A stretch of DNA of 36,725 nucleotides. Origin: a virus. A program made the position numbers and the translations under genes. Position 1 is the stretch's first letter, and each line of letters opens with the position of its first letter. Below are positions 2,027-22,492 of this stretch, one piece after another. The stretch lies in the IMG/VR virus record IMGVR_UViG_3300009784_000004, one strand, 5' to 3'. The notes below the pieces were generated by a model. It ran no database searches, was not told the origin of the DNA, and saw only the letters and a program-made list of their open reading frames with translations.

Positions 2027-3628
2027 TTACGACACCGACCCCCATTTCTTTGCCCACGTATTGAGTTTCGCTCGGAACGCCGGAGATGTTGGCTGGTCTT
2101 CGAACATCAAGACGAAGGCGCCAAACCTGTAGATTGCATTGTCGGCGCCGTTGTAACCGACGCCAATGCCGCTCACCATGACCGTGGCCGGGTCATACGG
2201 GACGAACCCTTCCACGCCTTCGGGTGAAGTGCCAACGAATGCCCGAAGGTGATTGTCCCACGCCTCGAATCCGATCATCCTTGTCTGCCCGTCGTTGACG
2301 GAACCTCCCAGTGGGAAGCGAAGAAAGTTGCCTCCCCCCATATCCCAAAAGACCTCGATAGCCCCATTGCTTAGGCCGAACTTTGGATTGCTGGTGACCA
2401 ATGTGTTGGGAGGATTATTTGACGGGTAGTTCGCGGCGCTCCTTGCGTCCGTCGTGTTGCCCACGATCCAGAACTCAAGACCGCTCTTGGTCGGCTCGCT
2501 CCCGTCGCTATCTGTCCGATAGAGTTCGTCTTCCCCCTCGAAAGAGACGGCGGGGAGAGAACCAAAGGCGTTCTCTCGGTAGTATGCGCCCCACCCTCCA
2601 AGACCGTAGCCGGCTCCCTGGGCGACCCACGACTTGACGCGCCCAGCAGTGGGAGTGACCTGGTCGGACTGCCACACCGCCGCGGTAGGAACATCCACGG
2701 TTGGATGCCAGGCCTCGAAGCCGCCAACGAGCGGAGCGCTCGATCCGTCTGGGCCAGACACCACAACATCCTGCATCCCAGCCGGCAATGCCGGAGAAAT
2801 GCAGGTAACGGTACCATCGTTCTGCACGACAGACGTACAAGCCATACCCCCGATCGTCACCGCAGAGACATCGCCGACAACTGTCAACGTGAGGGGGACA
2901 GAGCCGTAGGTATCGCCAAGAGAGGGTGATACGGAAAGGATAGCAGGGGGAGGATTGGGCGCTGGCAATGTTTCTGTGTACACGAGCACGATCGAGTTGC
3001 TGTCTCCCGCTGCTGTCGTCACGCTCACCGCCACATCTCCGGGGGCATGAGGGGGCGCAACGAACGTACACGTTACTTCGTCGCTCGAAATGGGGGCGAC
3101 GTCAGCGTCTCCCACTCGAACGTTGTTAGCTCCTGCGAGATGGGTACCGATCGCGATGACCGTCTGCCCCCCTGTCTCTTCCACCTCCGGTGGGCTCAAC
3201 ATCGTGAGGACGGGAAGGGGCAATGGTGGCGTGACCTTTGGCGCAACCATTTCCGCCGTGAGAATCCCGCAACACAGATGCAGGGTACCATCCGCCTCAA
3301 CGTTGCCAACAATGTCATCGCCCGATACAGGAGTGCATCGCTCGAGTGTGCCAGTATCTGAGACGCGAACCCATGACGAAGTTCCAGGACCAAGCTTGGT
3401 GAGCCATCGCGGAACCTGGCCAAACTGCTGAATCTCAACTGCCGAACTGGGCCAGTAGGAACCAAGAGTAATACCCGTCGTTCTTCGCCCCCCATTCCTC
3501 GCTTCTGCCGTTGCTTGAACAAAGGTCCCGGAAACCGGGTCTTGGATGACGGGGTCGCCCGCGTCTCCTTTGCTACCCATGCCAGAAAGAGTTGCGTGAA
3601 AACTGATCGAGAATTGGGGCGATGTCAT
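2027..3628 (-). CDS. Tail fibre / receptor-binding protein with two IPT/TIG-like Ig domains and a C-terminal lectin-like (LamG/ConA-like) region
   Basis: 533 aa. Two consecutive segments look like IPT/TIG repeats (SPPEVEETGGQTVIAIGTHLAGANNVRVGDADV...VTCTFVAPPHAPGDVAVSVTTAAGDSN, and SVSPSLGDTYGSVPLTLTVVGD...VTCISPALPAGMQDVVVSGPDGSS). Its position just before the lysis genes matches T7 gp17. Confidence 0.6.
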   Translation of the reverse strand: MTSPQFSISFHATLSGMGSKGDAGDPVIQDPVSGTFVQATAEARNGGRRTTGITLGSYWPSSAVEIQQFGQVPRWLTKLGPGTSSWVRVSDTGTLERCTPVSGDDIVGNVEADGTLHLCCGILTAEMVAPKVTPPLPLPVLTMLSPPEVEETGGQTVIAIGTHLAGANNVRVGDADVAPISSDEVTCTFVAPPHAPGDVAVSVTTAAGDSNSIVLVYTETLPAPNPPPAILSVSPSLGDTYGSVPLTLTVVGDVSAVTIGGMACTSVVQNDGTVTCISPALPAGMQDVVVSGPDGSSAPLVGGFEAWHPTVDVPTAAVWQSDQVTPTAGRVKSWVAQGAGYGLGGWGAYYRENAFGSLPAVSFEGEDELYRTDSDGSEPTKSGLEFWIVGNTTDARSAANYPSNNPPNTLVTSNPKFGLSNGAIEVFWDMGGGNFLRFPLGGSVNDGQTRMIGFEAWDNHLRAFVGTSPEGVEGFVPYDPATVMVSGIGVGYNGADNAIYRFGAFVLMFEDQPTSPAFRAKLNTWAKKWGSVS

Positions 3629-6321
3629 TATCTCTGTCCTCTCTGCGCTACTCCGTCGGCGCCTGACGCGGCAGGGACGGAAAGCCGGAAGTTGGAAACG
3701 CGGGAAGGTGGTGGCGGCTGTGCGGCCGGTCGCTGATACGTGGATTGAATTGTTTGCACGAAGTCCGGCGCAAGCGTTTGGTCTGTTGGCAAGTCGAGCA
3801 GAATCCCGAGTGCGATTCGTCGCGTATAGGGGATGGGTGATTTGCTGTCGACAAGAGCCTGAAACACTTGGTTGCGCATCTCATCGTAGAGTCGAGGGTA
3901 CACAGCCTTAACTGCCTCGACGTGCTCGGGGGTGAGCCCGCCGTGCACGGCTTTGCGTACGATGATGGTGGGATCATCGAGTGCTTCTTTGTACCTTCTG
4001 AATTGCGCAATCTCCGCGTCACTCGCGCGCGTCGCGGGCTGGAATTGCGGCTGCAAAGAGTATGGGTCTTTTTTTGCGCTCGGGAGTTTTGAAGCGAGAA
4101 AGGCGACCCCTCGCATGGCCGTCGCCGTTGCCGCCGTCGTCGTCTTTGGAGCGGCGTCGCTCACGGGGTTTAGCGCTGCGCCAACGCGATCGGAAAGTTG
4201 CTGCGGATTCGCTTGGAGTGCGGATATCCCGCGTTGATCGCGAATGAACTTTTCCGTCTTCACCCCTCCCGCTCTCGCGGCTTCACCTACGGCCTTCGCT
4301 TTGTCTTCCGAGCCGAGGACGCTGTTGACGCTAGATCTCGCGACTTCGTCACCAACCTTTTGCGCGCGCCCTTTGCTCGCGGCGCTGCTGATTAGCTGCG
4401 AGAAAAACCCGCTATCCACGCTCGAAGGAGACGGACTCGGCGACGGCGCTCGAGCAACGCCAACAGCCTCACGCGCGCCGCCGGTGAACTTGCGCATGAC
4501 GCTCTTCGCTTGCTGCTCGAGCATCGCAAGACGTTTCATCGTGGATATTGGGTTGACGGCTAGATCGGTTACGACGCCGACCAGCCCACCAAATTGTCGC
4601 TCATGTTCCTCCGCTTGAAGGCGTCGGATTTGGTTGATCGTCGAGGCCTCCTGCGTTGCCGAGTTGAACGTCTTCTCGAGCGAGTCGAGCGCCGCGCGCT
4701 CGTCTGCAATGGCCTGCGCCCCGCGAGCTCCGTGGTCATAGGCTTGCTCTGTCGCGTCGAGGAAGCGTCGGCGTGTCGAGAGAAAGTCTCGAACGGACTG
4801 CGCGTCGAGGTCCCTCGCTGGCGTCGTCAGCTGGTCGATGAAGCCGTGCACCGCGCCGGTATCGCCGACGAAGTCCGGGCGCCCAGCAGTCGATCCATAT
4901 CGTGTCGTGAACCTGTTTTGAAATCGTTCCCCGAGCGCGATGTTGCTCGTCGTTGCCTCGTTGACGATCCGCTGCGCCTCGCCCGCTTTGCCCCATGCAG
5001 TGTCCTCGAGTGCAGATTGCAACCCCTTCGAGTCTCTGTAGAGTGCATCAAACGTACGCCCTGATTCGGACAGACCAACGGCAGTACGACCAAATTTCGC
5101 CTCTTGTCCGACCCACCTCTTTGTGGTGTCGAGCGCATCAAAAAGCTTGGCGCTGTCACCGGAATCAATCGCATCATTGATTCTCGACACATAACCCGCG
5201 AACCTCTTCGCGCTCTTCTTGGTGAGCCCGGAATTGGCGTCTCCAATCATCGGCTCGACTTCCGCTTGTGCGCGTGAGAGCCAATCTTTTGCAATCAACG
5301 ATTGCTCTTGAAAGTTGGATTTGTCGACCAGGTTCTCGATTTGTTTTAGTTTCGCTTCCCCGAACGTTTCCATTTGGGTGATCGACTGCGCCCGTTGCTG
5401 CTTTGTAATCGACTCCGACAAGTCGCGGGCTTGTTCTGCGAGACGGCGCTCGCGAGCGACGAGAAGGTTCTGGCGGTTCGCCCAGATCTCGCCCAACGTC
5501 GAGGGCGAGGCCTGGTTCGCGAGCTCTTGGCCCGCAGCTTCCTCCGCCATCGTCTTACCGACGTTCGGCGCTGCCTCTCCGAAGGCCTTTTCCGCGACAG
5601 CATCGTAAGCCTCGGCGCTCACCTTGGGCGCTTTCCACGCCCGGTAACCTTCGCCGAGGCCGTGCATCAGACCGCCGGCAATCATGCCGCCGAGAGCTCC
5701 GTGAGAGGCACCGCCGATCAATGCCTCGCCTGTGAGGTCGGTGTCTTTAAGCGCGGACTCGGAGATTGCCTCTCCGGCGCCGTAAAACGATCCCTCGACG
5801 GCGCCACGAGCAAGGGCGCCGCCCGCGCGTGCAAGAGCACCTTCGCCGAGCACCTTTGCGAGCCCGCGCTCCGTGCCGGCGCCGATACGAGAGACCATCG
5901 CCGGAAGCGTGGAGAGTCCCTCTTCGTCTCCCGCAAGCGCGCCACCGAGGACGCCGCCGAGCTCGGAGATGGTCGACGCAATGGGCGCGTAGGACTTCCA
6001 GCGCTCGAGGCCTTCGGACGCGAGCTTCGCCCCTTCATCGCCGCGGAGCGCTCGCGTCAGTTCTACGATCGCCTTGTCGCTCAGCCCCAGCGTAAGGCCT
6101 CGCGCGGCGCCCTCGAGCGACGGCATGATCGCGCCCTCGATAGGATGCTCGGCGAAGTACGCGTCAAGGCGGGCGCGCGCCACGTCCGTGTTGGCTTGCT
6201 GCTGCGCAGCCTGCTGCTCAGCAGGTGTCGCCGCACGCACGCCTTGCCCTTCGCGCGCAATGCCCGCGGGGAGATACCCGACCTTTCCGGTAGCCGTCGT
6301 GACGGGCGTCGGATCTGCCAT
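3628..6321 (-). CDS. Large internal virion / ejection-type protein (897 aa)
   Basis: Ala/Gly-rich helical protein with Gly-rich hydrophobic stretches (GGASHGALGGMIAGGLMHGLG). GAGAGG RBS and a TGATG overlap with the upstream gene. Its position corresponds to T7 gp15/gp16. No catalytic motif recognised. Confidence 0.45.
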   Translation of the reverse strand: MADPTPVTTATGKVGYLPAGIAREGQGVRAATPAEQQAAQQQANTDVARARLDAYFAEHPIEGAIMPSLEGAARGLTLGLSDKAIVELTRALRGDEGAKLASEGLERWKSYAPIASTISELGGVLGGALAGDEEGLSTLPAMVSRIGAGTERGLAKVLGEGALARAGGALARGAVEGSFYGAGEAISESALKDTDLTGEALIGGASHGALGGMIAGGLMHGLGEGYRAWKAPKVSAEAYDAVAEKAFGEAAPNVGKTMAEEAAGQELANQASPSTLGEIWANRQNLLVARERRLAEQARDLSESITKQQRAQSITQMETFGEAKLKQIENLVDKSNFQEQSLIAKDWLSRAQAEVEPMIGDANSGLTKKSAKRFAGYVSRINDAIDSGDSAKLFDALDTTKRWVGQEAKFGRTAVGLSESGRTFDALYRDSKGLQSALEDTAWGKAGEAQRIVNEATTSNIALGERFQNRFTTRYGSTAGRPDFVGDTGAVHGFIDQLTTPARDLDAQSVRDFLSTRRRFLDATEQAYDHGARGAQAIADERAALDSLEKTFNSATQEASTINQIRRLQAEEHERQFGGLVGVVTDLAVNPISTMKRLAMLEQQAKSVMRKFTGGAREAVGVARAPSPSPSPSSVDSGFFSQLISSAASKGRAQKVGDEVARSSVNSVLGSEDKAKAVGEAARAGGVKTEKFIRDQRGISALQANPQQLSDRVGAALNPVSDAAPKTTTAATATAMRGVAFLASKLPSAKKDPYSLQPQFQPATRASDAEIAQFRRYKEALDDPTIIVRKAVHGGLTPEHVEAVKAVYPRLYDEMRNQVFQALVDSKSPIPYTRRIALGILLDLPTDQTLAPDFVQTIQSTYQRPAAQPPPPSRVSNFRLSVPAASGADGVAQRGQR

Positions 6322-7994
6322 CAGCGACCTCTCAGAGGAGCGACGAGATCGTCGTAGCTCTCCGTGCGCTGCGTGACCGGCATCGTGTTACCCGTCAGTT
6401 TGCTTGTGGGCTCAACGCCTTGCGCACCTTGTTTGTAGCTCTGTTGTCCGCGCATCAAGCCGCGCGCCTCGCCCTGCATGCGATGCTCACGCATCATCAT
6501 CTCAGCGTGCCGCGCGAGCGCCTGCTGCTCGCGCACGAGTACAAATTCTGGCTTTCCCTGCACGCTCATGCTGCCGAGCGCATCGCCAATCGCAGGATCG
6601 TCTTTGGCAACGCGCGCGACGAGCTCTTTGTTTTCTTTGTCAATCTCGTGGAGCCGCTGAAAGTCGCCTCCAACAGACGACAGCTTTTTCGCCTCTTCGA
6701 TGTTTTTGGCTATCTGCCGAAGTGCATTCGTCTTTTGAAGTAGCTGCGATCCATCCTTATTCAGTTCGTTTGCAACACCTGCGTCCGGAGCAAAGCCGCC
6801 AAGCGTCGGAACATAGGACGTCGAGCGGTCTTTGCCGCCAGTACCAGGCACGCCGTACCTTTCGGCCATATCCACGGTCGCCTTGTCGTGCGTCAGTTGT
6901 GCGAAATTGTCCGCAGCTTTTGCGCGTTCATCATCGATGCTTGCAAGCATCGTCTGATAAGCTGCCTGGTTTTTTGCGTTGCGCGATTGCGCGTAGAGTG
7001 CGCCCAATTGGACTTTTGCATTATCCAAATACTGCGCCCGCGTGGCTGCCGCTGCGCGTTCGGGGTCGCCGAACGCAGCGAGGTTTTGCGCATAAAGATT
7101 CGTTCGTAGGTCGTACGCGTTTCTCGCCTTCGCGATGTTCGCCTTTTGAGCGTCGATGTTCGCGTCGACTGCCCGGTTGACGATTGACAATGCTGCGTTT
7201 TGGCCGCCCGTCAATGAGGCGCCAAACTGGCCAAGTCCGATTGCAAGAGCGGCGAGCACCTTGGCCGCGCCGCCCTGCTCTTTCCAATACGCATTCGGAT
7301 CGATCTTGGCATTTGCATCATTGGCGAGCTGCTCAAACCTGCCTTGTTCCTGTTGGATATACGCGTTTCTCTTTTGCGTGATTTGACTGCTCACCGCTTG
7401 CGCCTTCGCACTCGCGATGACGTCGGCCTGTGCCATCTGAGATTCAGCATCGGACTCGAGCTGGGAAGCGGCGTAAGTATTCTGTGCAGCTGCAACTCGA
7501 GCGGCAGACGCTCGAGCGCGAGCCTCTTCTCCTCGCGCGAGGTCCTCGGGATCGATCCCGTATTCGACTTTGCTCGAGCGCGTGCTTGGCGTCCACCGAG
7601 GTTTGCCGGTTGCGGGGAGCGACGCGGGGGCCGCTCGCTGCAGGTCGTCGAACGACATTGCGCTGGGGAATCCGTCACCCTCAGCCGGTCCTTGCACTGG
7701 AAGAGGGGCAGCCGCGGCCGCTTCAGGCGTTGCGGTTTTCTCTCCGAGAATGCGTTGCAGCCATGGCCTTGGAGCCCCTGCGAGTTGAAGCGATTGCAGC
7801 GGGTTTGGCCCCGCAGGTTGTGGCTGCGGAGAAGGAGCGACGGGAGGCGGATCGTCGAGCTCGATGGTCGGGTTAGCAGCCTGAAGCGGCAACGGTGGAG
7901 CAGCCGAAGGAACGGGCGATCCCGTGATGCTCGCCAGTCCCGCGAGCGTGCCGGGCGAAAGGTTGTATCGTGCACCCAATGATGCGAGGTTCAT
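6321..7994 (-). CDS. Internal virion / ejection-type protein (557 aa)
   Basis: Pro-rich N-terminus, long Ala/Gln-rich helical region and one hydrophobic segment (AAKVLAALAIGLGQFGASL). TGGAGG RBS and ATGA overlap with the upstream gene. Confidence 0.45.
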   Translation of the reverse strand: MNLASLGARYNLSPGTLAGLASITGSPVPSAAPPLPLQAANPTIELDDPPPVAPSPQPQPAGPNPLQSLQLAGAPRPWLQRILGEKTATPEAAAAAPLPVQGPAEGDGFPSAMSFDDLQRAAPASLPATGKPRWTPSTRSSKVEYGIDPEDLARGEEARARASAARVAAAQNTYAASQLESDAESQMAQADVIASAKAQAVSSQITQKRNAYIQQEQGRFEQLANDANAKIDPNAYWKEQGGAAKVLAALAIGLGQFGASLTGGQNAALSIVNRAVDANIDAQKANIAKARNAYDLRTNLYAQNLAAFGDPERAAAATRAQYLDNAKVQLGALYAQSRNAKNQAAYQTMLASIDDERAKAADNFAQLTHDKATVDMAERYGVPGTGGKDRSTSYVPTLGGFAPDAGVANELNKDGSQLLQKTNALRQIAKNIEEAKKLSSVGGDFQRLHEIDKENKELVARVAKDDPAIGDALGSMSVQGKPEFVLVREQQALARHAEMMMREHRMQGEARGLMRGQQSYKQGAQGVEPTSKLTGNTMPVTQRTESYDDLVAPLRGR

Positions 7995-9133
7995 CGTCGC
8001 GCCTCCAATCTCTTGAGCCTCTCGTTTTGCTCTCGTTGCTGCGCCGCGAGATGACCAGCAGCAGCGAGTGAAAGTTTGAGCGCCTTCGGTTGGTCGATCC
8101 GCAGCAGACCGTCCGGCCCACGCATGACAGCCGATCCGGTGATGTCGTTGCGCGCCATCCGCTGCGCCATCGGTCCGACATTCTGCTCTCCCACGACTTG
8201 CCCCTGCGACTCAGCGAAGCCAGGGAGGTAGCTGTATTCATATGGCTCGAGACCCTCTTCAAGCGCTCGGCCCATATCTACATTACGGATACCTTGCTTC
8301 ATCCGCTCGTCGCTGCCTAAAGCCGCGAAGGCACCAATAGTAGATATCAACGCCTTGCCGTACCCGAGCGCCCTGTCCCAACCAGATTGTTTATTTTTCT
8401 CATCAATTGCCCCCACCTGTTGCTCGACCCCGCGCTGCTGCAATTGCGATTGTAGGTCCGCATTCTGCGCATTGTATCCCATCTGCTCATATCCGAGTTG
8501 CTTTTGGGCATTGAGTTGACGCTGTGTCATCTCAGATTGCGCCTGTGCGGTTGCCTGCTGCTGGTAGAGTTGTTGCGCGGTCAGGTCCTGCGTACCCATC
8601 GCGCCCGCCCCTTGACCGTAAGCATTGCGTGCTGTCGAGAGCTCGCCGGTTCTTGCATTGCCGTACTGCATGGCACCAGAAAGTTGCTGTTGCTGCATTG
8701 CCTGCAGCGACTGCGCATTTGCCGCCGCCTGCGCGAGGGAGCCACCCTTTGCGGCCGCCTGCGCCGTCAGCTGGCTTGCGAGCGATTGGCCCGCCACGCC
8801 TCCACCAAGGATGGCGGCCTGCGAGGGCGCTTGTCCGTTTGCCGACTGCTGCAGCAACGCGAGCGCTTGCTGCTGCGTGGCGCGATCTTGAAGCGCCTGC
8901 GCCGCAACTTCGTTCGCGCCGGAGAAATCAGCCTGGTAGGCCTGCTGCTGGGACGCCGCCCCTGCAAGACTCCGATATCTATTGACGTCCTGGTCGGAGC
9001 CAGAATATCCGATCAGGTTGCCGTCTTTGTCGTATTGCGGAGTACCAATATATCCACCAAACGCGAAACGATCGTAGAGCGGATCTTGCGTCGTCCCGTC
9101 CGAGTTGGTGCCATACAAAGTTGGGTCAAACAT
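7991..9133 (-). CDS. Gln/Ala-rich fibre-like protein with a C-terminal S74-type intramolecular chaperone (autoproteolytic) domain
   Basis: 380 aa from the ATG at 9133 (RBS GGTGGGAG). The C-terminal ~108 aa begin GSDERMKQGIRNV...LEPYEYSY...VGPMAQRMA...DGLLRIDQ...LKRLEA. This matches the SDxRxK ... Y.Y ... G.iAQ ... dG.l.vdy ... Le pattern of the endosialidase chaperone domain (Peptidase_S74). Confidence 0.7.
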   Translation of the reverse strand: MFDPTLYGTNSDGTTQDPLYDRFAFGGYIGTPQYDKDGNLIGYSGSDQDVNRYRSLAGAASQQQAYQADFSGANEVAAQALQDRATQQQALALLQQSANGQAPSQAAILGGGVAGQSLASQLTAQAAAKGGSLAQAAANAQSLQAMQQQQLSGAMQYGNARTGELSTARNAYGQGAGAMGTQDLTAQQLYQQQATAQAQSEMTQRQLNAQKQLGYEQMGYNAQNADLQSQLQQRGVEQQVGAIDEKNKQSGWDRALGYGKALISTIGAFAALGSDERMKQGIRNVDMGRALEEGLEPYEYSYLPGFAESQGQVVGEQNVGPMAQRMARNDITGSAVMRGPDGLLRIDQPKALKLSLAAAGHLAAQQREQNERLKRLEARR

Positions 9134-9134
9134 A

Positions 9135-10172
9135 TCAGCTCCCACCTACGGCTTGAGCAAGACTCAAACGACGAACTCGGAACTTCATCCGCTCGTCGCT
9201 GCCCATGGCCGCGCCCGCGCCAAGGCCAGATCCAACCATACTGGCGCCATATCCGATCAGATTCTGTATACGATTCAGGTCTTGTTGATTCGCTTGTTGA
9301 TTGACGTCGTAGACTCCAAACTCGATCTGCTGGTTCTTGAGCGCCGCCTGCTGTGCCGCGTCGTTGACGTTGTAACCCAACTGCTCATATCCCATCTGGG
9401 CTTGTTGGTTGATTTGGCGTTGCTGCAACTCGTTCTGTTGCTGTGAAAGCGTCTGCTGCTGCGTGAGGTTCATGCTCGAGTAGTCGCCCTGCCGGACGTT
9501 GTTTGCGTCCTGCATATACTGTTGTCGAGCCTGCGCTTGTTCTGCTGCCTGTTGCGCTGCAATCTGTTGGTTGCCCGTCTGCATGTAGCTGCCCTGCGTC
9601 CCTTGCTGTTGGCGCATTGCTGCTGCCTGCGCGAGGGAGCCGCCGCGCATGCTCATCGCGCCCGCACGCTGTGCCTGCGCTCCTTGTTGCAGCATCTGTT
9701 GTGACAATTGCGTAGCCTGTGTTGGAGCTCCGTTGGCCACCGCAGCATCCAAGTTCATCGCGTCGACTTGTGAGGCGCGCGCCGCGTCGCCCAACGATGC
9801 ATATTGGTTCGCCGCGGAGAAGTTTGTTTGGTACGCGGGCACCGCCGCGGCCGCCTGCGCGAGACTCTGATACCGTGCGACGTCTGCCGATTGCCCGCTG
9901 GCCGTTGGGTCGTTGACAAGCTTACTGGTGTTCGGATCGACAAAAACCGTCGACGTGTAGCCGCCCCAAACAGGCTCGTCTCCCGCAACGAACCCGGCCT
10001 TTGTCGGCGTATCGTTTGTGGCGCGCGTGGTCGTGTTGCCGGAAACGTCCGAATAGTAAATGGGGTTTGACCCGCGATATTGATGATAAAGGGCGTAGTC
10101 TTGCGCTGTTTGCGGAGAGAACGCCTTCGTGAGTTGCTTGCCAATCGAAGGGAGCGATCCAATCGTGTCCAC
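9135..10172 (-). CDS. Gln/Ala-rich fibre-like paralog ending 15 aa after a GSDERMK motif (no chaperone domain)
   Basis: 345 aa from the GTG at 10172 (GAAAGGAAGGGG RBS, 2 nt after the nozzle gene stop). Clear paralog of 7991-9133: ARYQSLAQAA vs NRYRSLAGAA, GGSLAQAAA in both, QMGYEQLGYN vs QLGYEQMGYN, GSDERMK in both. Confidence 0.65.
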   Translation of the reverse strand: MDTIGSLPSIGKQLTKAFSPQTAQDYALYHQYRGSNPIYYSDVSGNTTTRATNDTPTKAGFVAGDEPVWGGYTSTVFVDPNTSKLVNDPTASGQSADVARYQSLAQAAAAVPAYQTNFSAANQYASLGDAARASQVDAMNLDAAVANGAPTQATQLSQQMLQQGAQAQRAGAMSMRGGSLAQAAAMRQQQGTQGSYMQTGNQQIAAQQAAEQAQARQQYMQDANNVRQGDYSSMNLTQQQTLSQQQNELQQRQINQQAQMGYEQLGYNVNDAAQQAALKNQQIEFGVYDVNQQANQQDLNRIQNLIGYGASMVGSGLGAGAAMGSDERMKFRVRRLSLAQAVGGS

Positions 10173-10173: not shown

Positions 10174-13100
10174 TCACCCCTTCCTTTCTGCGGCTGGATG
10201 CTTGAATCCCTTCTTGGTCCCGACCTCGAGGCCAAAGGTTTCGAGCACGGGCCCCTTGCCCGTAGTGAGCACAAGTCCGTTCGACGGCGCCGAGTCCGAG
10301 AAACGGAAACGAATCTGCCTTGCCTTGCGGCGCGCCCCAATCATGACCTGGCAATGTTCAAGTTTTCCCGGCGATGTCACTGCCGAACCTGCTTCGAACG
10401 TGTGCGTCTGCGTGAATGCGTCCTCGCCGTCAAAGGCAATATCGACCGTGAGATCATGGTGGTCTTGCGACACCCCTTCGAGCACCAGTCGGCGCACCGA
10501 CTGGAACGAGAGCGGCGAAGACATGGTGGTAGGAACCGTGCCCGGGGCAACGTCGGCCGCTGCCGCGTCGTAATCCGTCGTCTCGATAACTATCGGGACG
10601 TAATGGGTATCATCCTGATTTGTCGTTTCTTCCTCCACGAGCACCGTGCCAAGCGGCGTCACGAGCGTGTACTGGTCCCGGTATATGCACGCGTCCGCGA
10701 ACGGGGTGCCGTAGACACCATCCGCCCAATACTTCGATGTTGCCCATTGGTTCTCGGCATAGTCCCAAACGAGAACCAGGCCACTTGTGCCGTCTGAGGT
10801 GTTGCACGTGAAGCGCACGTGGCTCGTGTTGGCACTCGCTACCAATACCGCGCTCGTCACGTCATGGTATTGTGCAAGTGTCTCGCGGACGGGGCGGCCA
10901 ACCCATGACACTTCGAGTGCGCGACTCAAAAGCTGAAGTCCTTTGGTCGACTGGAAGAGAACTCCTACGGGCGTGCTGATAACACTACGCGGATTGATGC
11001 ATCCTGCATCGGTTGGGATCTCGAACGGTCCCTGCAGATCGCTATTTTGCCCGTTCGCCGCCGGACCTTGACCGATGATGTACTGCATCCAATTCCGGCC
11101 AAAAACAACGAGTTTGTCGTCGAGCGAAGCGAGTGCGACAACCTCACGCTCGAAGGCAAACCGAAACGCTCCCGACGCAAACCCCGGCGCCGTCCCCTCA
11201 TCGTCGAGGAACGATTTGGTGAACCATACCTCGTGCCTCGAGCCGTCGACGATCCAAAGCCGGTTCATGTGCAAGGTCATCGTCGTTTGTGCCGGCGGTT
11301 GCTCGTCTGCCAAATCCCCGCCTTGCGTGTAGATTGCAGGCCTTTCCGCGAGCGCAATACCATTGCCGATATCCCCATCCGCAATCGTGTCAACGAGGTG
11401 AGAAAGCTGCGCGCTCCCGTCGTTGAGCACCATGTTGAAGGATGGCGGAATCGACAATTGTTGCGGGTTCGCCTGTCCCATAGGAGTTCGGTACGCCGTG
11501 AGGTAGTACCACCCCGATGGATCGACCGGCCCCTTGTTGCCGACCGTAATCGAATTTAGGTCAACCAGTGTCTGGTAGTTCGCGTTTGCAAGAGTAAACG
11601 GTTTGGAGAGGAGCGCTGGCGGGCTTCGGTATTTGAGTCCTGAAGCCGAATAGTATTCAGCCACAAAACCATAAACATAATCGCCCGCCTGCATGCTGCC
11701 GCCCGCCATGCCTTCTTTGATGTCGGCGATGGTTGGCTCGCGCGAAAAGCCGTAGTCGAAAACCTGCTGCCCGTCGTAGACAGACAGAAGCCCTCCCGTG
11801 ATGAATATCTCTCGGTTGTACGACACGACACGGTCCGCATCCTTTGGACGGTTTGCGCCCATCGTCACGGACAGCAGCCTGAGCCCGCACATCTGCGATT
11901 CGCTACGGTTCTGCGAGAGATCGAGCTGATATGGGATTAGCGAGACAGCTTCGGTCGGGAGAGTGCATGCATGAGGGGGGCGAGGAAATGGGCCGCCGGC
12001 GATAGAAGTGTCGATGCGGCCGACATAATGGTGTGTCCCGGTCGCGTCCGGCACTTGCTGCGTGGCTACCAGGAGATAAGAGTTTGGCGTTTGCGTGATC
12101 GCCTCTGTCGAGGAAAACGCATCAACTACGGCGAACGTCGGAGTTAGCCCGGTGTCGAGGATACCCGTGAGCGGAAGAACGTTCGCCGTGTGCGTTGGCG
12201 AGTACATGAATCCGTCTGGCGTGACGATGCATGTTGCGGTATACGGCGCGGAAGTGTCGGCATATCCAACCCATGCCGCGGACGTCTTAGCCACGATCGA
12301 GAAGGGTGTTGCCGGCACCGCATCAATCGTAATGGGGCCCGTAGCCTGAATGAGCGAAAGCGGATCATGTGTCGTCATCCGCACCGCGCTGCCGTTCGAG
12401 TACGCAACCCAAACCTGGCTCTCGTCTGCATCTACCACGGGAGACGAACATGCTGTGGCTTCGCCTGCGGCTGAAACCGTTCCAATCGACACGGGAGGGC
12501 CGCCGCCAAACGAATAGGAGAAGCGCTGCACCCTTACCAGGTGAGTCACAATATCGACGTACGCAACGATGAATCCACCAAGAGCTGGGCAAACGTCGAA
12601 GTCCAAGGCTCCAGAAATGAGAACGGAATCGGCCGGAAAGGACGGGTCGACATCAAGGGCGGAGGTGCTCACGGCGTTGACCAAGATGTTGCTTTCGGCG
12701 TGTGTCAACATGACTGCCGTCGTGGCATCGACGCTGGCCACGCGAACAACTCCCATCGAAATGCCGAAGCGGAACGGACCCGCGATTCTCGATTTCGAAG
12801 CGGTGTCGAAAATGCCAAGCCACGACAAGCCGAAACTAGAATTCGCTGCATCTCCGTCAATCCAGCCCACAACAAGGTGCGGGCCGCAGGCGGCTAGGTC
12901 TGCACACGCAACGCCGGCCGATGACGCAAGGATGGTATCCCATGTCAACCCTGGTTTTGGTCGGTATTCGACCAAAACCCATTGCTCAAGATTTGGCTCG
13001 TAAGCAAATACTTCTCCGGTCGGCGCAAGAAGAACGAGCTGGTCGCCGCGCGCTCCAATCCTCGACGCAGAAGGGATGGCCGTCGATCCACTCCCGGGCG

Positions 13101-13269
13101 CCATCGCTTTCGACAGCGATCTGGTTCCTGCCCTTTTTTCGAGGGCATTCCCTCGCGTCCACCTCACGTTTTCCGCTCGCGCGAGCGTGCCGAACGGGTC
13201 ATGGATCGATGACGTGCCCTCAGACAAGCCCGCCTTGAACGAGGTCTTGATGGTCTGAAATTGAAGCAT
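10174..13269 (-). CDS. Tail tubular protein B / nozzle protein (T7 gp12-like), 1031 aa
   Basis: The N-terminus MLQFQTIKTSFKAGLSEG...NVRWTRGNALEKRAG parallels T7 gp12 (SQSIKNLKGGISQQ...NGWSSETEGLQKRP) as I remember it. Size and position after the capsid and adaptor genes fit. Confidence 0.6.
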   Translation of the reverse strand: MLQFQTIKTSFKAGLSEGTSSIHDPFGTLARAENVRWTRGNALEKRAGTRSLSKAMAPGSGSTAIPSASRIGARGDQLVLLAPTGEVFAYEPNLEQWVLVEYRPKPGLTWDTILASSAGVACADLAACGPHLVVGWIDGDAANSSFGLSWLGIFDTASKSRIAGPFRFGISMGVVRVASVDATTAVMLTHAESNILVNAVSTSALDVDPSFPADSVLISGALDFDVCPALGGFIVAYVDIVTHLVRVQRFSYSFGGGPPVSIGTVSAAGEATACSSPVVDADESQVWVAYSNGSAVRMTTHDPLSLIQATGPITIDAVPATPFSIVAKTSAAWVGYADTSAPYTATCIVTPDGFMYSPTHTANVLPLTGILDTGLTPTFAVVDAFSSTEAITQTPNSYLLVATQQVPDATGTHHYVGRIDTSIAGGPFPRPPHACTLPTEAVSLIPYQLDLSQNRSESQMCGLRLLSVTMGANRPKDADRVVSYNREIFITGGLLSVYDGQQVFDYGFSREPTIADIKEGMAGGSMQAGDYVYGFVAEYYSASGLKYRSPPALLSKPFTLANANYQTLVDLNSITVGNKGPVDPSGWYYLTAYRTPMGQANPQQLSIPPSFNMVLNDGSAQLSHLVDTIADGDIGNGIALAERPAIYTQGGDLADEQPPAQTTMTLHMNRLWIVDGSRHEVWFTKSFLDDEGTAPGFASGAFRFAFEREVVALASLDDKLVVFGRNWMQYIIGQGPAANGQNSDLQGPFEIPTDAGCINPRSVISTPVGVLFQSTKGLQLLSRALEVSWVGRPVRETLAQYHDVTSAVLVASANTSHVRFTCNTSDGTSGLVLVWDYAENQWATSKYWADGVYGTPFADACIYRDQYTLVTPLGTVLVEEETTNQDDTHYVPIVIETTDYDAAAADVAPGTVPTTMSSPLSFQSVRRLVLEGVSQDHHDLTVDIAFDGEDAFTQTHTFEAGSAVTSPGKLEHCQVMIGARRKARQIRFRFSDSAPSNGLVLTTGKGPVLETFGLEVGTKKGFKHPAAERKG

Positions 13270-14968: not shown

Positions 14969-16207
14969 TCACAACAAGCCAACGGCGTTCCAGCCGGGAG
15001 CATTGCAGCCGATGTTGCCGTAATACCCAATACGGATCTGGTACGAATCCGTTGTTGGATTACGAAGAAGACGAAGCCCGTCGCCGGACTCGCCAAGAAC
15101 ACGCGGCGCCTCAAGAAGGGACTTGAACGTCCACGTGGAGAGGGTGAGCATGTAAAACTGCCCAGTTGGACAATTGTTGTCTGAGATGATGTCGAGCGGG
15201 CCCTTGGGCCCGTGCATCTGAAGCCCCGTAACACCAATGTCCGCATCGGGGAGTTGGGAATTCAGAATGATAACCTTGCTCCCCAGCGCGATTGATATGT
15301 TCGCGAAATCTAGGGGATTGACCACGATCAAGTCCGGTTTGCCACCCTCGAGAACGAGACGTGCGGCGCACTTCTGGATCGTCTCTTCGATTGGTCCGCC
15401 CTGGGTCTTCGTCCACCTCAAACCCGAAAGACGAGTGACATCAACCGAACGGTCGATGCCAAAGAAGTTGTCTCCGGGCGCCGGCGGCACCATGGGAATC
15501 CAGCCCGCAAGCCCGGTAGGCAACGAGCGTGGAGTCTCGAAATCTCCGTTTTGGAAGATGTAGTCTCCGATGGCGGCAGTGGGGATTGCGGTGCTGATCG
15601 GCGCACTCAAGGTGAGAATGCCATTCTCTCGGTCAACTGCCGTGACCTGCACAACACCAGTCTCTTTGATTCCTGTCGTTCCGTCCGTGGCGGCGAGATT
15701 GAGCTGCATATTGATCTCGAAATTGACTACGCTGTTTGGGTCGGCCAATATGAGCTGATTCGTCGTGAGGACGGTCGTGGCACCAATCCTTCCGCGTGAC
15801 CCGCCACCGTTACCAAATAGCGTATTCGCGATCGAACGACCGGCCGTGTAAAACGCATTACTGATTTCGCTCTTCATGCCGTCGAGCATGCTGAAGTCGC
15901 CAAGCTTGGCGGCGTCGACCATGTCCCCGGCGATGTTCGCGAACACATAATCGCGAGCTCGCGGAACGTTCACGGCGCTGTAGACGGACGGCGTCGCGTT
16001 GGCTTGGCCTACAGCGAACGCCGCGCCTCGGCCCTGCGGGCTGCCGTACTGGAATGCGATCTGCCAGTTGAGGCCGCCGAACTTCGTGTTCTTCGCCATG
16101 CGGGCAAAGAGCGTCGATTCGCCGTAACAAATGTTATTTACGGTTCGTGGGTCATATTGAATTTTTAGAACTCGACCTAATGCGAGTTCGTCCAACGTGT
16201 CAGACAT
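14969..16207 (-). CDS. Major capsid protein (412 aa)
   Basis: Size, position after the scaffold gene, CCGGAGG RBS, and composition typical of abundant structural proteins. Fold not verified. Confidence 0.65.
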   Translation of the reverse strand: MSDTLDELALGRVLKIQYDPRTVNNICYGESTLFARMAKNTKFGGLNWQIAFQYGSPQGRGAAFAVGQANATPSVYSAVNVPRARDYVFANIAGDMVDAAKLGDFSMLDGMKSEISNAFYTAGRSIANTLFGNGGGSRGRIGATTVLTTNQLILADPNSVVNFEINMQLNLAATDGTTGIKETGVVQVTAVDRENGILTLSAPISTAIPTAAIGDYIFQNGDFETPRSLPTGLAGWIPMVPPAPGDNFFGIDRSVDVTRLSGLRWTKTQGGPIEETIQKCAARLVLEGGKPDLIVVNPLDFANISIALGSKVIILNSQLPDADIGVTGLQMHGPKGPLDIISDNNCPTGQFYMLTLSTWTFKSLLEAPRVLGESGDGLRLLRNPTTDSYQIRIGYYGNIGCNAPGWNAVGLL

Positions 16208-16257: not shown

Positions 16258-17274
16258 TTAGGTCGGGTGGAAGGCTTCCCTCAGAATACGAAGTGACGCC
16301 TCGTCCTTTTCGGCCGACGTCATCTTGCGCGGAGGGGACGCCCGCTCTCCCGACGCCGTCGTCGTCAGAGTGCGCGGACCATCGGCCCTATCCGTTGGCC
16401 GTTGTATCAGTGTCTTCTCCGCATTGTTGCTGCCATTCCCTGGCATCGGAGCAAGCTTGCTCCACGCATCCACACGTGACGAGCGTTGCTTGGCCATCTC
16501 TTCGAGAAGCCCTGCAACGTAGTCGTTGTCTGGATCTTCGCCGTGTTCTTCCTTGTAGGCGACCCGATGCTTATCTGCGAGTTGAAGTCCGTAAAAAGCA
16601 ACTTCTTCCGGGGTGAACTCTTTTCGAATATTTGGATATTTCGTGACATTACCGGCCACGAGCATGACAAAATCGCGTTGTGCCTCGCGAATCGAATATT
16701 GTGTTTGCGCCTGCTGCTTCTCGGCTTTCTCGGCCGCGAGCTCGCGACGAATGACGGCAAGCTCCTCGCGGAGCGCCGCAGTCTCGGTCTTCGTCTCTTC
16801 GCGCGCCGTCGCTACGAGCTGCGACGGATCATGTTCCGTCGCGAGCATCTCAAGAAATTTCTTTGGCTCGATCCCCGAGAGCTCGAGGAGCTTCGATGGC
16901 GACATCTTCGCCGCCTTCGCGCGCTCGGCAAACTCTTTGTCCGACCGCAATTGCGCACGCTCTTGTTCGATTTGTGCGCGCTCCTCATTCAGCTTTTTTC
17001 GGGCTTCCGCAGCCCGTAAGTCAGCTTTGCGAGCTGCAAGAATACGAACAGACACACGGTCGTCAGTCTTCGCCGCCTCGCCTGCCGGCGCATCTGCTGC
17101 TGTCGCTGCATGCTCTCCTCCTGCCGAAGGAGAAGCGGGATTAGAGGCATTGGGACCCTCTTTAAGCTTCTTTGCCGCTTCAGGGAATACTCGTTCAATC
17201 GCGGACTTGAAGTCCGCTTGCGATTCCGTTTCCGCAGTTTGCGGCTGCGCGTTCGTAGTTGCTACGTCTGTCAT
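16258..17274 (-). CDS. Scaffolding protein (338 aa)
   Basis: Highly charged, helical, Ala/Glu/Lys/Arg-rich. Lies between the portal and capsid genes. GGAGG RBS and ATGA overlap with the portal stop. Confidence 0.65.
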   Translation of the reverse strand: MTDVATTNAQPQTAETESQADFKSAIERVFPEAAKKLKEGPNASNPASPSAGGEHAATAADAPAGEAAKTDDRVSVRILAARKADLRAAEARKKLNEERAQIEQERAQLRSDKEFAERAKAAKMSPSKLLELSGIEPKKFLEMLATEHDPSQLVATAREETKTETAALREELAVIRRELAAEKAEKQQAQTQYSIREAQRDFVMLVAGNVTKYPNIRKEFTPEEVAFYGLQLADKHRVAYKEEHGEDPDNDYVAGLLEEMAKQRSSRVDAWSKLAPMPGNGSNNAEKTLIQRPTDRADGPRTLTTTASGERASPPRKMTSAEKDEASLRILREAFHPT

Positions 17275-19067
17275 GCTGCCTCCGGCATGGGCATAGGTGC
17301 GGATCCCGGTCCTGGTCCCGGCATTGGTCCAGCACCTGGCATAGGCCCGAGAGCCGGCCCTGGTGGAGGAGTTGCCTGCGCAATGAAACCCTGCGTAAGG
17401 GCCATGTAATCTCTCAGTAGGCCAAGTCTGGTATCTGGCACCATATCCAATCGAGCATCATGGTATGCCTGGTTGACCAGCCTCAACGCTAGGTGGTGAT
17501 CGTCGAACGGCTCGGGAGAGACGGCGAGACCATCGGTCAACATGGTTTTGATGTTGCGCTCGATGATACGTCGTGAAGCATTTGCCCGGCGCACGTATTG
17601 CTGCGTGTCGGGGAAGTCTACGATATCGAGAACATCCTCGGGTGGGATCATGCCTGCCTGAATCATGTCCTGCGCCCATGCGAGCTTGCCCGCGGGCGTG
17701 GAAGGGATCATCGATACGGGATAGACGTCGATAACCGGATCATCCACTGCCACGTCCGACCACCGAATCTGCTCTACAGCCCCCTGCGCCACCGAGCGCA
17801 CGCTGTAGCTCCCGCCAATCTTCTTGGCCATTCGCACCACGAGGTGCGCAATGTCGATAATGAACTGCTCGTAATCTCGGCCTACCTTCATGAACCGCTC
17901 GGACGCGATATCCTGATACGTCCTTTGCGCAGGCTCGGAATCGAGGCCCGCAGGCTTCTGACCTGTCGCATTCATTTGCGACACGCCCTCGTCCTCAAAT
18001 GCCTTATTGTAGATTTGCCACAAATGTGCGTATATCTCTTGAGATATAACCGAAGGGGCATGGTACGTTGGCGGAGTCCCGCTGTACTTGACGATGGCCG
18101 CGAGATCGTTGTTGATCTGCTGAACCAGCGTCTGCCCGTTCTGCACCATCCAGTGACCCTGGATAAGATGATGGCCCTTTTGAATTTGCTGAAGGAGCTT
18201 GTTGATCTCGCGCTGTTTGCCGGCTTGTGCCTCGGCAATGCCGACGCCGAAATAACCAATCACGTCCTCTTGCCAACGAATAACGGCGAAGGGGAAGGGA
18301 TCTTCCCATTCCTCGTCAACGAGAGTGGCGTTGTCAATGGCGATGACGTGCCGGCCCGGACTCTTTGGGCCTGCGAGATGCCATGCCTCGGTAACCAGAA
18401 CCTGGTCGGCGTTCGATTGCCAGGAGAATTCGCGGTCATCTGCCGACGCGGCCACCGTCATGATCTCTGACTCTTTGTCGGGATACGATTCCGCGAGCGT
18501 ATGCCGGTCTATGTAGAGTCGCTGATACATATTCCGGGGCTTCATGTGCAGCCCCTCGGCCTCGTCGACGACAATCGTATACGTCGGAGCGTGCTCGATA
18601 CAGACCCGACCATCCGCCTCGTACACCTTCACGAATCCGGTGCCGAAAATGCATGCATGCGCAAATGCGCGATCGGTTTCGACGTAGGCCTTCGTCTCTC
18701 GAAAAATACCAGAAACGAACTTGTCCAAGTTCTCCGCGAGCACGCGAGACTCGTAATCGCCGCCATCCGTGAGGAACTTTGGTTTTGGTCGATTCTTCGC
18801 CGCAATCTTGCTTACGGCGGTCTGCACCATATTACGAATGACGTTGAGCGATAGACTCGGCACCGTCGAATGGCGGCGAGTGCCAATTACGCCAAAACCG
18901 CTAATCGAGCGATCTGCGTAGAGTGTGGCGTTGCGCAGGTCGAGAAACTTGCGATCACCCTGCATGTTGCGCATTTCACGAACTCGCGTCACGAGCTCAA
19001 GATGCGGGGTACCCTCCACCTTCCACCATGCGAGAGGACCCGGTACGGACGCAAAGGCATTCAGCAT
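17271..19067 (-). CDS. Portal protein (598 aa) with a Pro/Gly-rich C-terminal tail
   Basis: Size and position (terminase, small gene, portal, scaffold, capsid). GAGGGGG RBS. The C-terminus is PPPGPALGPMPGAGPMPGPGPGSAPMPMPEAA. Confidence 0.65.
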   Translation of the reverse strand: MLNAFASVPGPLAWWKVEGTPHLELVTRVREMRNMQGDRKFLDLRNATLYADRSISGFGVIGTRRHSTVPSLSLNVIRNMVQTAVSKIAAKNRPKPKFLTDGGDYESRVLAENLDKFVSGIFRETKAYVETDRAFAHACIFGTGFVKVYEADGRVCIEHAPTYTIVVDEAEGLHMKPRNMYQRLYIDRHTLAESYPDKESEIMTVAASADDREFSWQSNADQVLVTEAWHLAGPKSPGRHVIAIDNATLVDEEWEDPFPFAVIRWQEDVIGYFGVGIAEAQAGKQREINKLLQQIQKGHHLIQGHWMVQNGQTLVQQINNDLAAIVKYSGTPPTYHAPSVISQEIYAHLWQIYNKAFEDEGVSQMNATGQKPAGLDSEPAQRTYQDIASERFMKVGRDYEQFIIDIAHLVVRMAKKIGGSYSVRSVAQGAVEQIRWSDVAVDDPVIDVYPVSMIPSTPAGKLAWAQDMIQAGMIPPEDVLDIVDFPDTQQYVRRANASRRIIERNIKTMLTDGLAVSPEPFDDHHLALRLVNQAYHDARLDMVPDTRLGLLRDYMALTQGFIAQATPPPGPALGPMPGAGPMPGPGPGSAPMPMPEAA

Positions 19068-21583: not shown

Positions 21584-22023
21584 GATTTACTCCTTGGCCA
21601 AATTAGATATGGCCGAAATGCCCAATTAGGCGGAATGCCGAATTTTACCGCAAGGTCGGTGCGGTGCGTGTAGTCGAGGCCCATCTCGAGCAGCTCTCGC
21701 GTCATCCACGACGCGACGCCCAGTCGGCGCCATCTTGGTTTGACGGCCAGATAATGCACCACAGTTAGCGGCGCGTCTGGCGTAAGGCCCTCTCGGGCGT
21801 GCCATCCTACGATGACGTCAGGCTCAGCACGCAAACACGCAATACGCACCACCGAGCGCGCGACCAGCGCTTCCGCGATGGGCGCATAATCTGCACACAG
21901 ATCGCGGTGGTCAACGTAGCCGTGCAACCCATGCGCCGAGTAGCTACGCACCCATGACGACAAGACGTAGTTTTTGTCGCTCTCGCGCATATCGCGCAAG
22001 GTCAGTTCGGACGCGACATCCAC
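21580..22023 (-). CDS. GNAT-family N-acetyltransferase (147 aa)
   Basis: VHYLAVKPRWRRLGVASWM fits the acetyl-CoA-binding motif A (R/Q-x-x-G-x-G/A) after a beta strand. Size is typical of a single GNAT domain. AGGAG lies 9 nt before the GTG at 22023. Confidence 0.6.
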   Translation of the reverse strand: MDVASELTLRDMRESDKNYVLSSWVRSYSAHGLHGYVDHRDLCADYAPIAEALVARSVVRIACLRAEPDVIVGWHAREGLTPDAPLTVVHYLAVKPRWRRLGVASWMTRELLEMGLDYTHRTDLAVKFGIPPNWAFRPYLIWPRSKS

Positions 22024-22077
22024 CGCACGCTGCTCCTGCTATGCATTTTTTGCGTAGTAGCATGTGCTGGACGCGTG

Positions 22078-22467: not shown

Positions 22468-22492
22468 AACCGTGCGCCCTCAGGTCCGCAAA

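Follow-up and report, generated by a model that had tools for sequence, protein, structure and literature searches.

Tandem ejection-protein-like paralogs of a myxobacterial podovirus, only one of which carries a Peptidase_S74 chaperone domain

Introduction

The Peptidase_S74 domain, also known as the ICA domain, for intramolecular chaperone auto-processing, is treated as a hallmark of tail fibres and spikes, and annotation pipelines name the proteins that carry it accordingly. In the ICA domain of MyRF the "cable" of one subunit, which bears the cleavage motif, is threaded into the beta "donut" of the subunit next to it; only trimers undergo cleavage, for which a Ser-Lys dyad and a pair of tyrosines are required (PMC8326128). 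A separate group of phage proteins is ejected together with the genome. For podoviruses the gene order tubeA, tubeB, internal virion proteins (IVP) A to D, and fibre has been described (PMC4819975), and in phage SU10 the virion proteins that disappear when the genome is released include gp21 and gp22 (PMC9509320). Here we analyse two adjacent genes, A and B, of the IMG/VR virus record IMGVR_UViG_3300009784_000004, hereafter called the window, which is the whole stretch of 36,725 nucleotides. Both proteins contain the sequence GSDERMK, an instance of the SDxRxK cleavage motif of S74 domains, while only B continues into such a domain.

In a preliminary description of this DNA, A and B were taken for fibre proteins. 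We propose instead that they are anciently duplicated, IVP-B-like ejection proteins and that A depends on the chaperone of B, a reading which in our judgement is about evenly poised between right and wrong. Under it, both proteins would reside in the virion, be ejected with the genome and undergo cleavage at the motif.

Gene architecture and the S74 domain

Gene A starts with a GTG at 10172, directly after the stop codon of the upstream gene, and ends with a TGA at 9137-9135, while gene B runs from an ATG (9133-9131) to a stop codon at 7993-7991 (for all features see Table 1). The two genes are paralogs, as had been noted before: BLASTP aligns their products with 38% identity over 279 aa (E 9e-28), that is, over nearly the whole shared length. 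At the nucleotide level the identity outside the motif is only 33-61% in windows of 30 codons. A single base separates the stop codon of A from the start codon of B, with GGGAG located 5 nt upstream of the latter, and in relatives the same junction takes the form of ATGA, TGATG or TAATG overlaps, which are of the coupling type. The public protein P0014 has the same 345-aa sequence as A. B is 100% identical to P0001 from a 47,305-nt contig of a Polyangiaceae metagenome-assembled genome, which carries the NCBI name "tail fiber domain-containing protein"; this fibre name most likely reflects the S74 domain only.

Database profiles place the chaperone domain in the downstream gene only, as the preliminary description had it. 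B matches PF13884 above threshold (23.6 bits against a cutoff of 22, E 6.6e-5, residues 274-326), whereas no match for A was obtained in Pfam (E up to 1) or PHROG, and NCBIfam gave none for A, B, their neighbours and three relatives. The elements of the domain in B comprise S274, K279, Y300, Y302, the sequence GPMAQ and a terminal helix (348-379). Hereby, S274, D275 and K279 are invariant and Y300/Y302 conserved at 90% or above in an alignment of 52 long relatives; PF13884 itself is matched by 25 of these 52, the subset of long relatives used for the Pfam scan of the family. In the AlphaFold2 (AF2) model of B the predicted local distance difference test score lies above 90 across the C-terminal domain. 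A Foldseek search of the PDB returned the MyRF ICA domain (7dc3; E 9e-4, probability 1.0) as best match and 3gw6 as a weaker one, while the fold matches of B in BFVD are S74 domains of fibres. The Ser-Lys dyad and the Tyr pair needed by MyRF have their equivalents in B (PMC8326128), and from its residues and predicted structure the chaperone of B looks functional.

A, in turn, has the motif (S325, K330) and lacks the domain, both by ICA profile and by fold. The open reading frame (ORF) bears out the earlier statement that the protein stops 15 residues after the motif: A ends 15 residues after the motif Lys, or 21 residues counted from the Ser. The AF2 model of A is made up of helices, a single long one among them (179-314), and ends in a disordered tail.

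Composition, fold and gene position

Outside the S74 domain, A and B resemble ejection proteins in composition. The combined Ala, Gln and Gly content (A+Q+G) amounts to 0.41 in A and 0.48 in residues 1-273 of B, and the maximum Kyte-Doolittle hydropathy, taken over a 15-residue window within the 45 aa before the motif for A and B and within the last 45 aa for the comparison proteins, amounts to 1.13 and 1.33, respectively. Corresponding values are 0.41 and 1.57 for P22 gp7, 0.41 and 1.21 for SU10 gp21, and 0.44 and 1.19 for SU10 gp22. The tail needles yield 0.26 and 0.35 (P22 gp26) and 0.24 and 0.76 (SU10 gp18). For the IVP-A proteins T7 gp13 and P22 gp14 the A+Q+G content is 0.17; an assignment of A as such a non-structural IVP-A was discarded in view of composition and of the paralogy with B. 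The Gly/Ala-rich hydrophobic stretch (Kyte-Doolittle of at least 1.0) before the first motif recurs in 66 of 105 family members, compared to 3 of 151 in a background region. Since the motif follows this stretch, a cut before the Ser would leave A (…GSGLGAGAAMG) and B (…ISTIGAFAALG) with a C-terminus like that of P22 gp7 or SU10 gp21/22.

Likewise, the predicted folds give little reason to see fibres in these proteins. According to AF2 models built with family alignments, A and B are almost entirely alpha-helical with helices of about 130 residues (132-260 in B) and have no beta-rich shaft; matches to fibre folds arise solely from the S74 domain, and the helical module of either protein has no structural analog in the PDB or BFVD. 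The genes are located between the protein in tubeB position and two large helical proteins, while the fibre slot is held by an IPT/TIG-domain protein. The preliminary description had found fibres odd right after a nozzle gene, and this oddity is real in that the slot is that of internal virion proteins. Its assignment of A and B as fibres is not supported, in view of their helical modules, their ejection-type composition, the internal-virion slot and the TIG protein in the fibre slot. What we find, namely synteny between tubeB/nozzle and fibre together with Ala/Gln/Gly-rich helical proteins containing a Gly-rich hydrophobic segment, is what characterizes IVP-B-like proteins.

The only PHROG match of B points in the same direction. 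It is phrog_4287, "DNA ejection protein" (E 4.2e-5, 23.9 bits), which covers residues 60-348 and thus nearly the full length; this is the family of SU10 gp21 (E 1e-117) and gp22 (E 3.5e-109). The two SU10 proteins, encoded at 21904-23937 of the SU10 genome (L021), are themselves adjacent paralogs with 32% identity (E 1e-13). Their paralogy is not mentioned in the passages on SU10 that were consulted.

A different reading of the gene position is that A, B or both build a trimeric coiled-coil tail needle, located outside or plugging the channel and resembling P22 gp26 or SU10 gp18, with the S74 domain nucleating the trimer as in fibres. This fibre-like reading is closest to the view taken in the preliminary description, and we regard it as improbable. 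The needle of P22 and that of SU10 are encoded immediately after the nozzle gene; A (345 aa) is similar to SU10 gp18 (322 aa) in size and position, the AF2 models contain a helix of about 130 residues, and S74 domains impose trimers. Profile comparisons reveal no similarity to either needle, as hhalign gives a probability of 0.04 against SU10 gp18 and hmmsearch at most 1 bit against gp26 and gp18. Moreover, the A+Q+G content of 0.41-0.48 and the Gly-rich end fit ejection proteins and not needles, the PHROG match of B is to the ejection proteins gp21/22, some long relatives match tape-measure PHROGs, and a single needle would hardly accommodate two paralogs.

The stub of A and its conservation

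Beyond the motif, the C-terminal stubs of the short family members retain a recognizable pattern. Counted outside the residues fixed by the search pattern, Val or Ile is found at position +9 in 20 of 26 short members, Arg at +10 in 16 of 26 and Leu or Met at +12 in 19 of 26, which gives the consensus SDxRxKxx[VI]Rx[LM]..A..ARRGG[RY]; one subgroup ends in SDxRxKxIADxYGK. The contigs L003 and L005, which are nearly identical, allow the stub to be compared with its surroundings. While the B gene and the gene for a 1020-aa protein show 0 differences between the two contigs, a mosaic patch is present only in codons 325-407 at the 3' end of the A-type gene (L003 8748-10004, L005 4593-5852), with 16 synonymous codon changes and 17 that are nonsynonymous or indels. 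The 24-codon stub itself has 3 synonymous and 0 nonsynonymous changes, compared to 17 nonsynonymous or indel changes in the adjoining hypervariable linker. Judged by this pattern of substitutions, the stub of A is under purifying selection. Independently of this, the patch is noteworthy in itself: the linker ahead of the stub has here undergone localised recombination or is hypervariable.

The tandem arrangement is equally well kept. In all 9 of 9 lineages with gene context (the window, L001, L003-5, L006/L013, L014, L016, L018, L019 and L020; contexts chosen by hand and not at random) the short paralog is followed immediately by a long S74 paralog. Hereby, L006/L013 stands for a prophage at about 3.75 Mb of the completed chromosome of Labilithrix luteola (DSM 27648), the one cultured source encountered, and the contig of L020 stops 147 nt into the downstream gene, so that it covers a family-type N-terminus only and the S74 domain would lie beyond the contig end. 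In six further viral contigs the gene for a protein of about 1076 aa is followed directly by one long gene instead of a pair. A-type and B-type modules of different phages form separate clades, and the duplication is therefore ancient and older than the split of these lineages.

In L019 (2549-4590) the B-type gene is split into a 594-aa ORF with a Pro/Arg/Thr-rich end that looks out of frame and an overlapping 86-aa ORF, which encodes positions 23-99 of the S74 core. This split is probably a frameshift (assembly error or pseudogene) and not a free-standing chaperone.

These observations also bear on whether A is a frameshifted or truncated pseudogene, with the 21-nt identity described below being due to recent gene conversion or an assembly error. 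We hold this to be next to impossible. The nucleotide identity at the motif is somewhat above expectation (about 0.02) and the B-type gene of L019 does look frameshifted; the same truncated architecture, however, is found in independent NCBI, JGI and Logan assemblies and in the finished Labilithrix chromosome, and the purifying selection on the stub, the ancient duplication and the low nucleotide identity outside the motif speak against decay. As B starts 1 nt after the stop codon of A, there is no room for a chaperone remnant in A, and as the linker varies between L003 and L005 while the stub is unchanged in protein, assembly artefact and decay of A are ruled out. The suggestion that the upstream copy is a decaying duplicate is thus refuted by the tandem arrangement in 9/9 lineages, the conserved and selected stub and the age of the duplication; a frameshift artefact at the end of A, which had been named as a possible objection, is rejected on account of the independent assemblies and the selection on the stub.

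The 21 nt encoding GSDERMK are indeed identical in both genes, as had been reported: a degenerate search pattern for GSDERMK has exactly two matches in the window, with 0 expected from 100 shuffles. Where A and B share a degenerate residue, the codons are identical at 57 of 111 positions (51%), and on this basis the probability of six identical degenerate codons in a row is about 0.02, or 0.003 from codon usage alone. Another identical run, of 17 nt, is located at GGSLAQAA. The 21-nt identity is mildly unusual and not striking. In other lineages the motif codons of A and B agree at 10-16 of 21 bases, often with different residues. Since the full identity is specific to the lineage of the window, the 21-mer is not a conserved joint, and the idea of a recombination joint at this place does not apply as a conserved feature; the lineage-specific identity would be due to chance, codon preference or very local conversion.

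Over evolutionary time, modules have nevertheless been re-assorted around the motif boundary. The upstream type of module does occur with a full chaperone, a point on which the preliminary description had asked for a comparison: an A-like module is fused to a complete S74 domain in 20 of 85 long relatives, for example in the long gene of L018, with 31 of the others being B-like and 34 ambiguous. Short-stub proteins nearly all have A-like modules (23/24). An 886-bp deletion variant of the window phage was not seen among the relatives compared.

Motif arrangement across the family

A HMMER search seeded with A yielded at least 256 clusters at 50% identity (E up to 1e-3), of which the best 153 were classified. 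Among these, 85 are long proteins with an S74-like C-terminal domain as recognized by our own hidden Markov model, 24 are short and end 12-31 residues after the Ser of SDxRxK, 42 have neither motif nor S74 domain and 2 fall into none of these classes; as the search was seeded with A, the counts are biased towards A-like modules. PHROG searches gave no matches for 53 short family members and only scattered ones for 52 long members, with two or three of the long members matching tape-measure PHROGs. With tblastn, A and B had no match among about 50,000 GenBank phage records, in the case of A even at E up to 1.

In the 85 long proteins the position of the motif varies widely. It is only adjacent to the chaperone core, as in B, in 8 proteins, adjacent with one or more extra upstream motifs in 25, exclusively upstream at the end of the Gln-rich module in 46, and absent in its strict form in 6. 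In the 46 split proteins the core begins 51-625 residues after the motif (median about 121), and a loose [ST]DxxxK is present near the core in only 6 of them. From these arrangements the motif is best seen as a boundary element of the Gln-rich module. Because 46 of 85 proteins have the motif far upstream of the core, this family can accommodate a cable remote from its donut; A takes this furthest, with cable and donut on different polypeptides.

The number of motifs per chain in long relatives ranges from 0 to 4. It is conceivable that SDxRxK acts autonomously, or is cut in trans by a released chaperone trimer or another protease, such that the multi-motif proteins would be polyproteins and A a one-site substrate. 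The extra upstream motifs in 25 of 85 and the purely upstream motifs in 46 of 85 long proteins favour this, as motifs outnumber donuts, and an autonomous or otherwise recognized motif fits that surplus at least as well as one-to-one threading does. We nevertheless consider it very improbable, since in MyRF the cut depends on the setting of an ICA trimer with the donut's Tyr pair (PMC8326128), literature searches brought up no instance of a free S74 domain that processes separate substrates, and the short paralog always has an S74-bearing neighbour (9/9 contexts).

Several further features of the family deserve mention in their own right. Terminal repeats of the type "MGGREDPY" or "GGIDRNNPY" are present in many relatives (P0012, P0013, P0041-43, P0052, P0056, P0103; L018 601-1614), and many short paralogs have a "DPY" in the linker shortly ahead of SDxRxK; the DPY type looks like another short linear motif that the family conserves towards its C-terminus. 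The long relatives P0011, P0012, P0013 and P0062, which are devoid of S74, have an "LVGExGPELVxP" motif after the Gln-rich module, and "LVGExGPELV" is presumably common in the C-terminal regions of tape measure proteins. P0002 (~370-450) and P0012 (~480-560) share the insert "…PWDTGxDYDLRGAYAxGxDRDxRGHLPDT[FY]KKPNHETFSDESxYAxY", located either between motif and chaperone core or C-terminally. Neither Pfam nor NCBIfam gives a match for this insert, which may be a cargo domain.

Proposed processing of A and B

Taken together, the architecture suggests the following sequence of events. In A and B alike, the N-terminal Gln/Ala-rich helical module closes with the Gly/Ala-rich hydrophobic segment, and the S74 cleavage motif follows without a gap. 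If endoNF and MyRF are taken as a model, B would trimerise via its ICA domain, with the cable of one chain threaded through the donut of its neighbour, and the Ser274-Lys279 dyad would then cut B before Ser274, whereupon the chaperone is discarded. Mature B (1-273) would then expose a hydrophobic, Gly-rich C-terminus of the kind seen in P22 gp7 and SU10 gp21/22. A keeps the cable only, comprising the residues of the dyad, those resembling the first strand and a short tail. Most likely A relies on B: co-translated with B, its cable would be docked into, or cut with the help of, the chaperone of B in a mixed assembly. With A cut before Ser325, both proteins would mature to the same kind of C-terminus. 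Processing or docking of the stub of A by the chaperone of B is plausible, and the dependence of A on B is made plausible by the coupling-type junctions, the strict co-occurrence, the cable-to-neighbour geometry of ICA domains and the split relatives. Action of the chaperone in trans or formation of hetero-oligomers, suggested in the preliminary description, would agree with the same co-occurrence, junctions and geometry.

Alternatively, the stub of A may be a conserved but non-catalytic tail that works independently of B, serving in contacts with portal, DNA or core or as an incorporation signal, with the SDxRxK residues retained as structure from a truncated ancestor. We rate this as unlikely. 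In its favour, a basic Gly end (…ARRGGR, …LKGGR) is frequent in short stubs and in long proteins, and in T7 gp16 the positively charged residues at the C-terminus are needed for infectivity (PMC8954989); (D/N)PY repeats replace the stub in some short paralogs, which suggests interchangeable short linear motifs, and the tail of A is disordered in the AF2 model. The strictest residues of the stubs, on the other hand, are the catalytic Ser and Lys positions together with the strand pattern of genuine S74 domains, the stub of the window itself has no basic end, and the motif always follows the hydrophobic segment closely, at a place where a cut would produce a terminus of the IVP-B type.

The proposal that A and B are IVP-B-like proteins with A relying on the chaperone of B has to be set against a number of points that weigh against it. 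S74 domains normally serve trimeric fibres, and the slot directly after the nozzle gene is, as discussed, that of the needle in P22 and SU10. The phrog_4287 match of B is weak (23.9 bits) and absent for A, shared composition could contribute to it, and it was not reproduced when the family profile was compared by hhalign and hmmsearch with SU10 gp21/22 alone. The same programs revealed no homology to T7 gp13-15, P22 gp26/14/7/20/16 or SU10 gp18-23. The stub of A (…AQAVGGS) lacks the basic …ARRGGR ending typical of its class, and the short paralog of L018 (601-1614) has no motif and ends in (D/N)PY repeats; as some short paralogs lack the motif, the stub is not obligatory for the short partner. 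The surplus of motifs over donuts belongs here as well. Finally, in a homotrimer of B all donuts would be filled by cables of B, also after cleavage, leaving no obvious free site for A.

Extending the proposal, the S74/ICA domain could be a maturation device for ejection proteins, one that acts on non-contiguous cables, either up to hundreds of residues upstream in the chain, as in split S74 proteins with cargo inserts and multi-site polyproteins, or on a co-translated paralog. Their cleavage would unmask a Gly-rich hydrophobic C-terminus required for insertion into the membrane during DNA ejection. This more general statement we put forward tentatively and consider rather unlikely. If true, a membrane-active ejection protein could simply be kept soluble until assembly, its hydrophobic terminus being exposed by self-cleavage, and the pair would represent a two-gene, enzyme-plus-substrate derivative of a chaperone regarded as strictly intramolecular.

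Genomic context

The window represents a temperate podovirus or prophage of myxobacterial origin with SU10/P22-type head and tail genes. Starting from the SU10-type adaptor, the gene order is adaptor, a gene of about 120 aa, the 1031-aa protein, A, B, the 557-aa protein, the 897-aa protein and the TIG protein (Table 1), which mirrors the tubeA-tubeB-IVP-fibre scheme and is the same in relatives. The 1031-aa protein directly upstream of A matches the SU10 nozzle protein gp17 (1005 aa) in size and position, while BLASTP detects no sequence similarity between the two; its counterpart in relatives is conserved at about 1010-1076 aa. Sequence searches of the PDB with B and with the 1031-aa protein returned nothing meaningful. 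The 557-aa protein has counterparts of about 592-667 aa and the 897-aa protein counterparts of about 793-902 aa in relatives, and neither has a match in Pfam, PHROG or a PDB sequence search. A syntenic TIG protein of 534 aa is found in L003.

Table 1. Positions of A, B, their elements and neighbouring genes in the window
Feature	Position	Strand	Basis or remark
Gene A, short paralog, 345 aa	9135..10172	minus	ORF; Gln/Ala-rich helical module ending in S74 "cable-only" stub
Gly/Ala-rich hydrophobic segment of A, NLIGYGASMVGSGLGAGAAMG, residues 304-324	9201..9263	minus	Maximum Kyte-Doolittle 1.13
21-mer encoding GSDERMK in A, identical to that in B	9183..9203	minus	Degenerate pattern search
C-terminal stub of A, SDERMKFRVRRLSLAQAVGGS, residues 325-345	9138..9200	minus	Cleavage motif and first strand-like residues, no chaperone core
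A/B junction	9131..9145	minus	GTGGGAG (ribosome-binding-like), TGA of A, one base, ATG of B
Gene B, long paralog, 380 aa	7991..9133	minus	ORF; same kind of helical module as in A, and complete C-terminal S74/ICA domain
Hydrophobic segment of B, ALGYGKALISTIGAFAALG, residues 255-273, directly before the cleavage site	8315..8371	minus	Maximum Kyte-Doolittle 1.33
21-mer encoding GSDERMK in B	8297..8317	minus	Degenerate pattern search
Peptidase_S74/ICA domain of B, residues 274-380	7994..8314	minus	Pfam, AF2, Foldseek
Large terminase	19400-20773	minus	
P22/SU10-like portal	17271-19067	minus	
Capsid protein	14969-16207	minus	
SU10-type adaptor, 228 aa	13637..14323	minus	PF24175, 39.2 bits against a cutoff of 27
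1031-aa protein, tubeB/nozzle position by synteny	10174..13269	minus	Weak phrog_511 match
557-aa Ala-rich protein, IVP-C position by synteny	6321..7994	minus	A+Q+G 0.33, no Cys
897-aa Ala-rich protein, IVP-D position by synteny	3628..6321	minus	ORF, composition
533-aa IPT/TIG protein, fibre/receptor-binding slot	2027..3628	minus	PF01833, E 7e-16, two stretches
Glucosaminidase	524-1072	minus	
Integrase	35544-36686	plus	

Elsewhere in the window, a 562-aa ORF without a Pfam match (24654-26342) overlaps a GC peak at 25001-26000 (0.653 compared to about 0.58-0.60 elsewhere), and small ORFs with hydrophobic stretches between the TIG-protein and glucosaminidase genes (1069-1980) are candidate lysis genes of the holin/spanin type. 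On L003, the head genes are interspersed with an HNH endonuclease gene in opposite orientation (3849-4289, minus), and a gene with a response-regulator receiver domain (18447-18842) adjoins a lysozyme-like gene.

Comparison with described systems

Full-text literature searches on endosialidase chaperones or S74 in combination with ejection, internal-virion, ejectosome or tape-measure proteins turned up no account of the present architecture, and a review of ejection proteins (PMC8954989) makes no mention of an S74-bearing one. While the S74/ICA domain and Gln-rich ejection-protein paralogs are each known, their combination, the split form and the conserved cable-only partner appear to be undescribed. 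As the domain here sits on helical, ejection-protein-like modules, host-range predictions drawn from fibre-type names would be wrong. The cable-only partner, together with the split and multi-motif relatives, provides a natural system for asking whether an ICA domain processes a site in trans, a question that also bears on the biology of MYRF, where trimer-dependent cleavage controls a transcription factor.

SU10 gp21/22 are among the nearest counterparts. Like A and B, they are tandem paralogs of about 320-350 aa, rich in Gln, Ala and Gly and with a Gly-rich hydrophobic end, and SU10, a Kuravirus, shares with the window a structural module with an SU10-type adaptor and portal. Unlike A and B, they have neither the SDxRxK motif nor an S74 domain, and their genes are placed after those of the needle, gp19 and gp20, whereas A and B directly follow the gene in nozzle position. 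The IVP-B proteins T7 gp14 and P22 gp7 share with A and B the slot between tubeB and the large IVP-C/D, the Ala/Gln/Gly-rich composition and the hydrophobic C-terminal region; they differ in having no detectable sequence similarity to A and B and in their length (196 and 229 aa compared to 345 and 380 aa). P22 gp7 is also matured by proteolysis, with the N-terminal 20 residues being removed by the host protease OpdA (GenBank note), whereas maturation of A and B would be C-terminal and self-catalysed.

Tail needles such as P22 gp26 and SU10 gp18 resemble A and B in that their genes immediately follow the nozzle gene, and the long helices of A and B would fit a trimeric coiled coil; they have no profile match to A and B and differ in composition and C-terminus. 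Tape measure proteins are long, helical and ejected, which would also apply to the present family, and the tape-measure PHROG matches of its long members fit in here, but the window is a podovirus context without tail tube genes and neither A nor B has such a match.

With the ICA domains of endosialidase-type proteins and MyRF, B shares the SDxRxK dyad, a Tyr-x-Tyr some 26-28 residues further on, the GxxAQ sequence and a C-terminal coiled-coil helix. It departs from the usual S74 proteins as follows: an alpha-helical, Gln-rich module takes the place of a triple beta-helix or fibre shaft ahead of the domain, the gene lies where internal virion proteins are encoded, motif and core can be 51-625 residues apart, as in 46 of 85 relatives, and a conserved partner protein, A, carries the motif without the domain.

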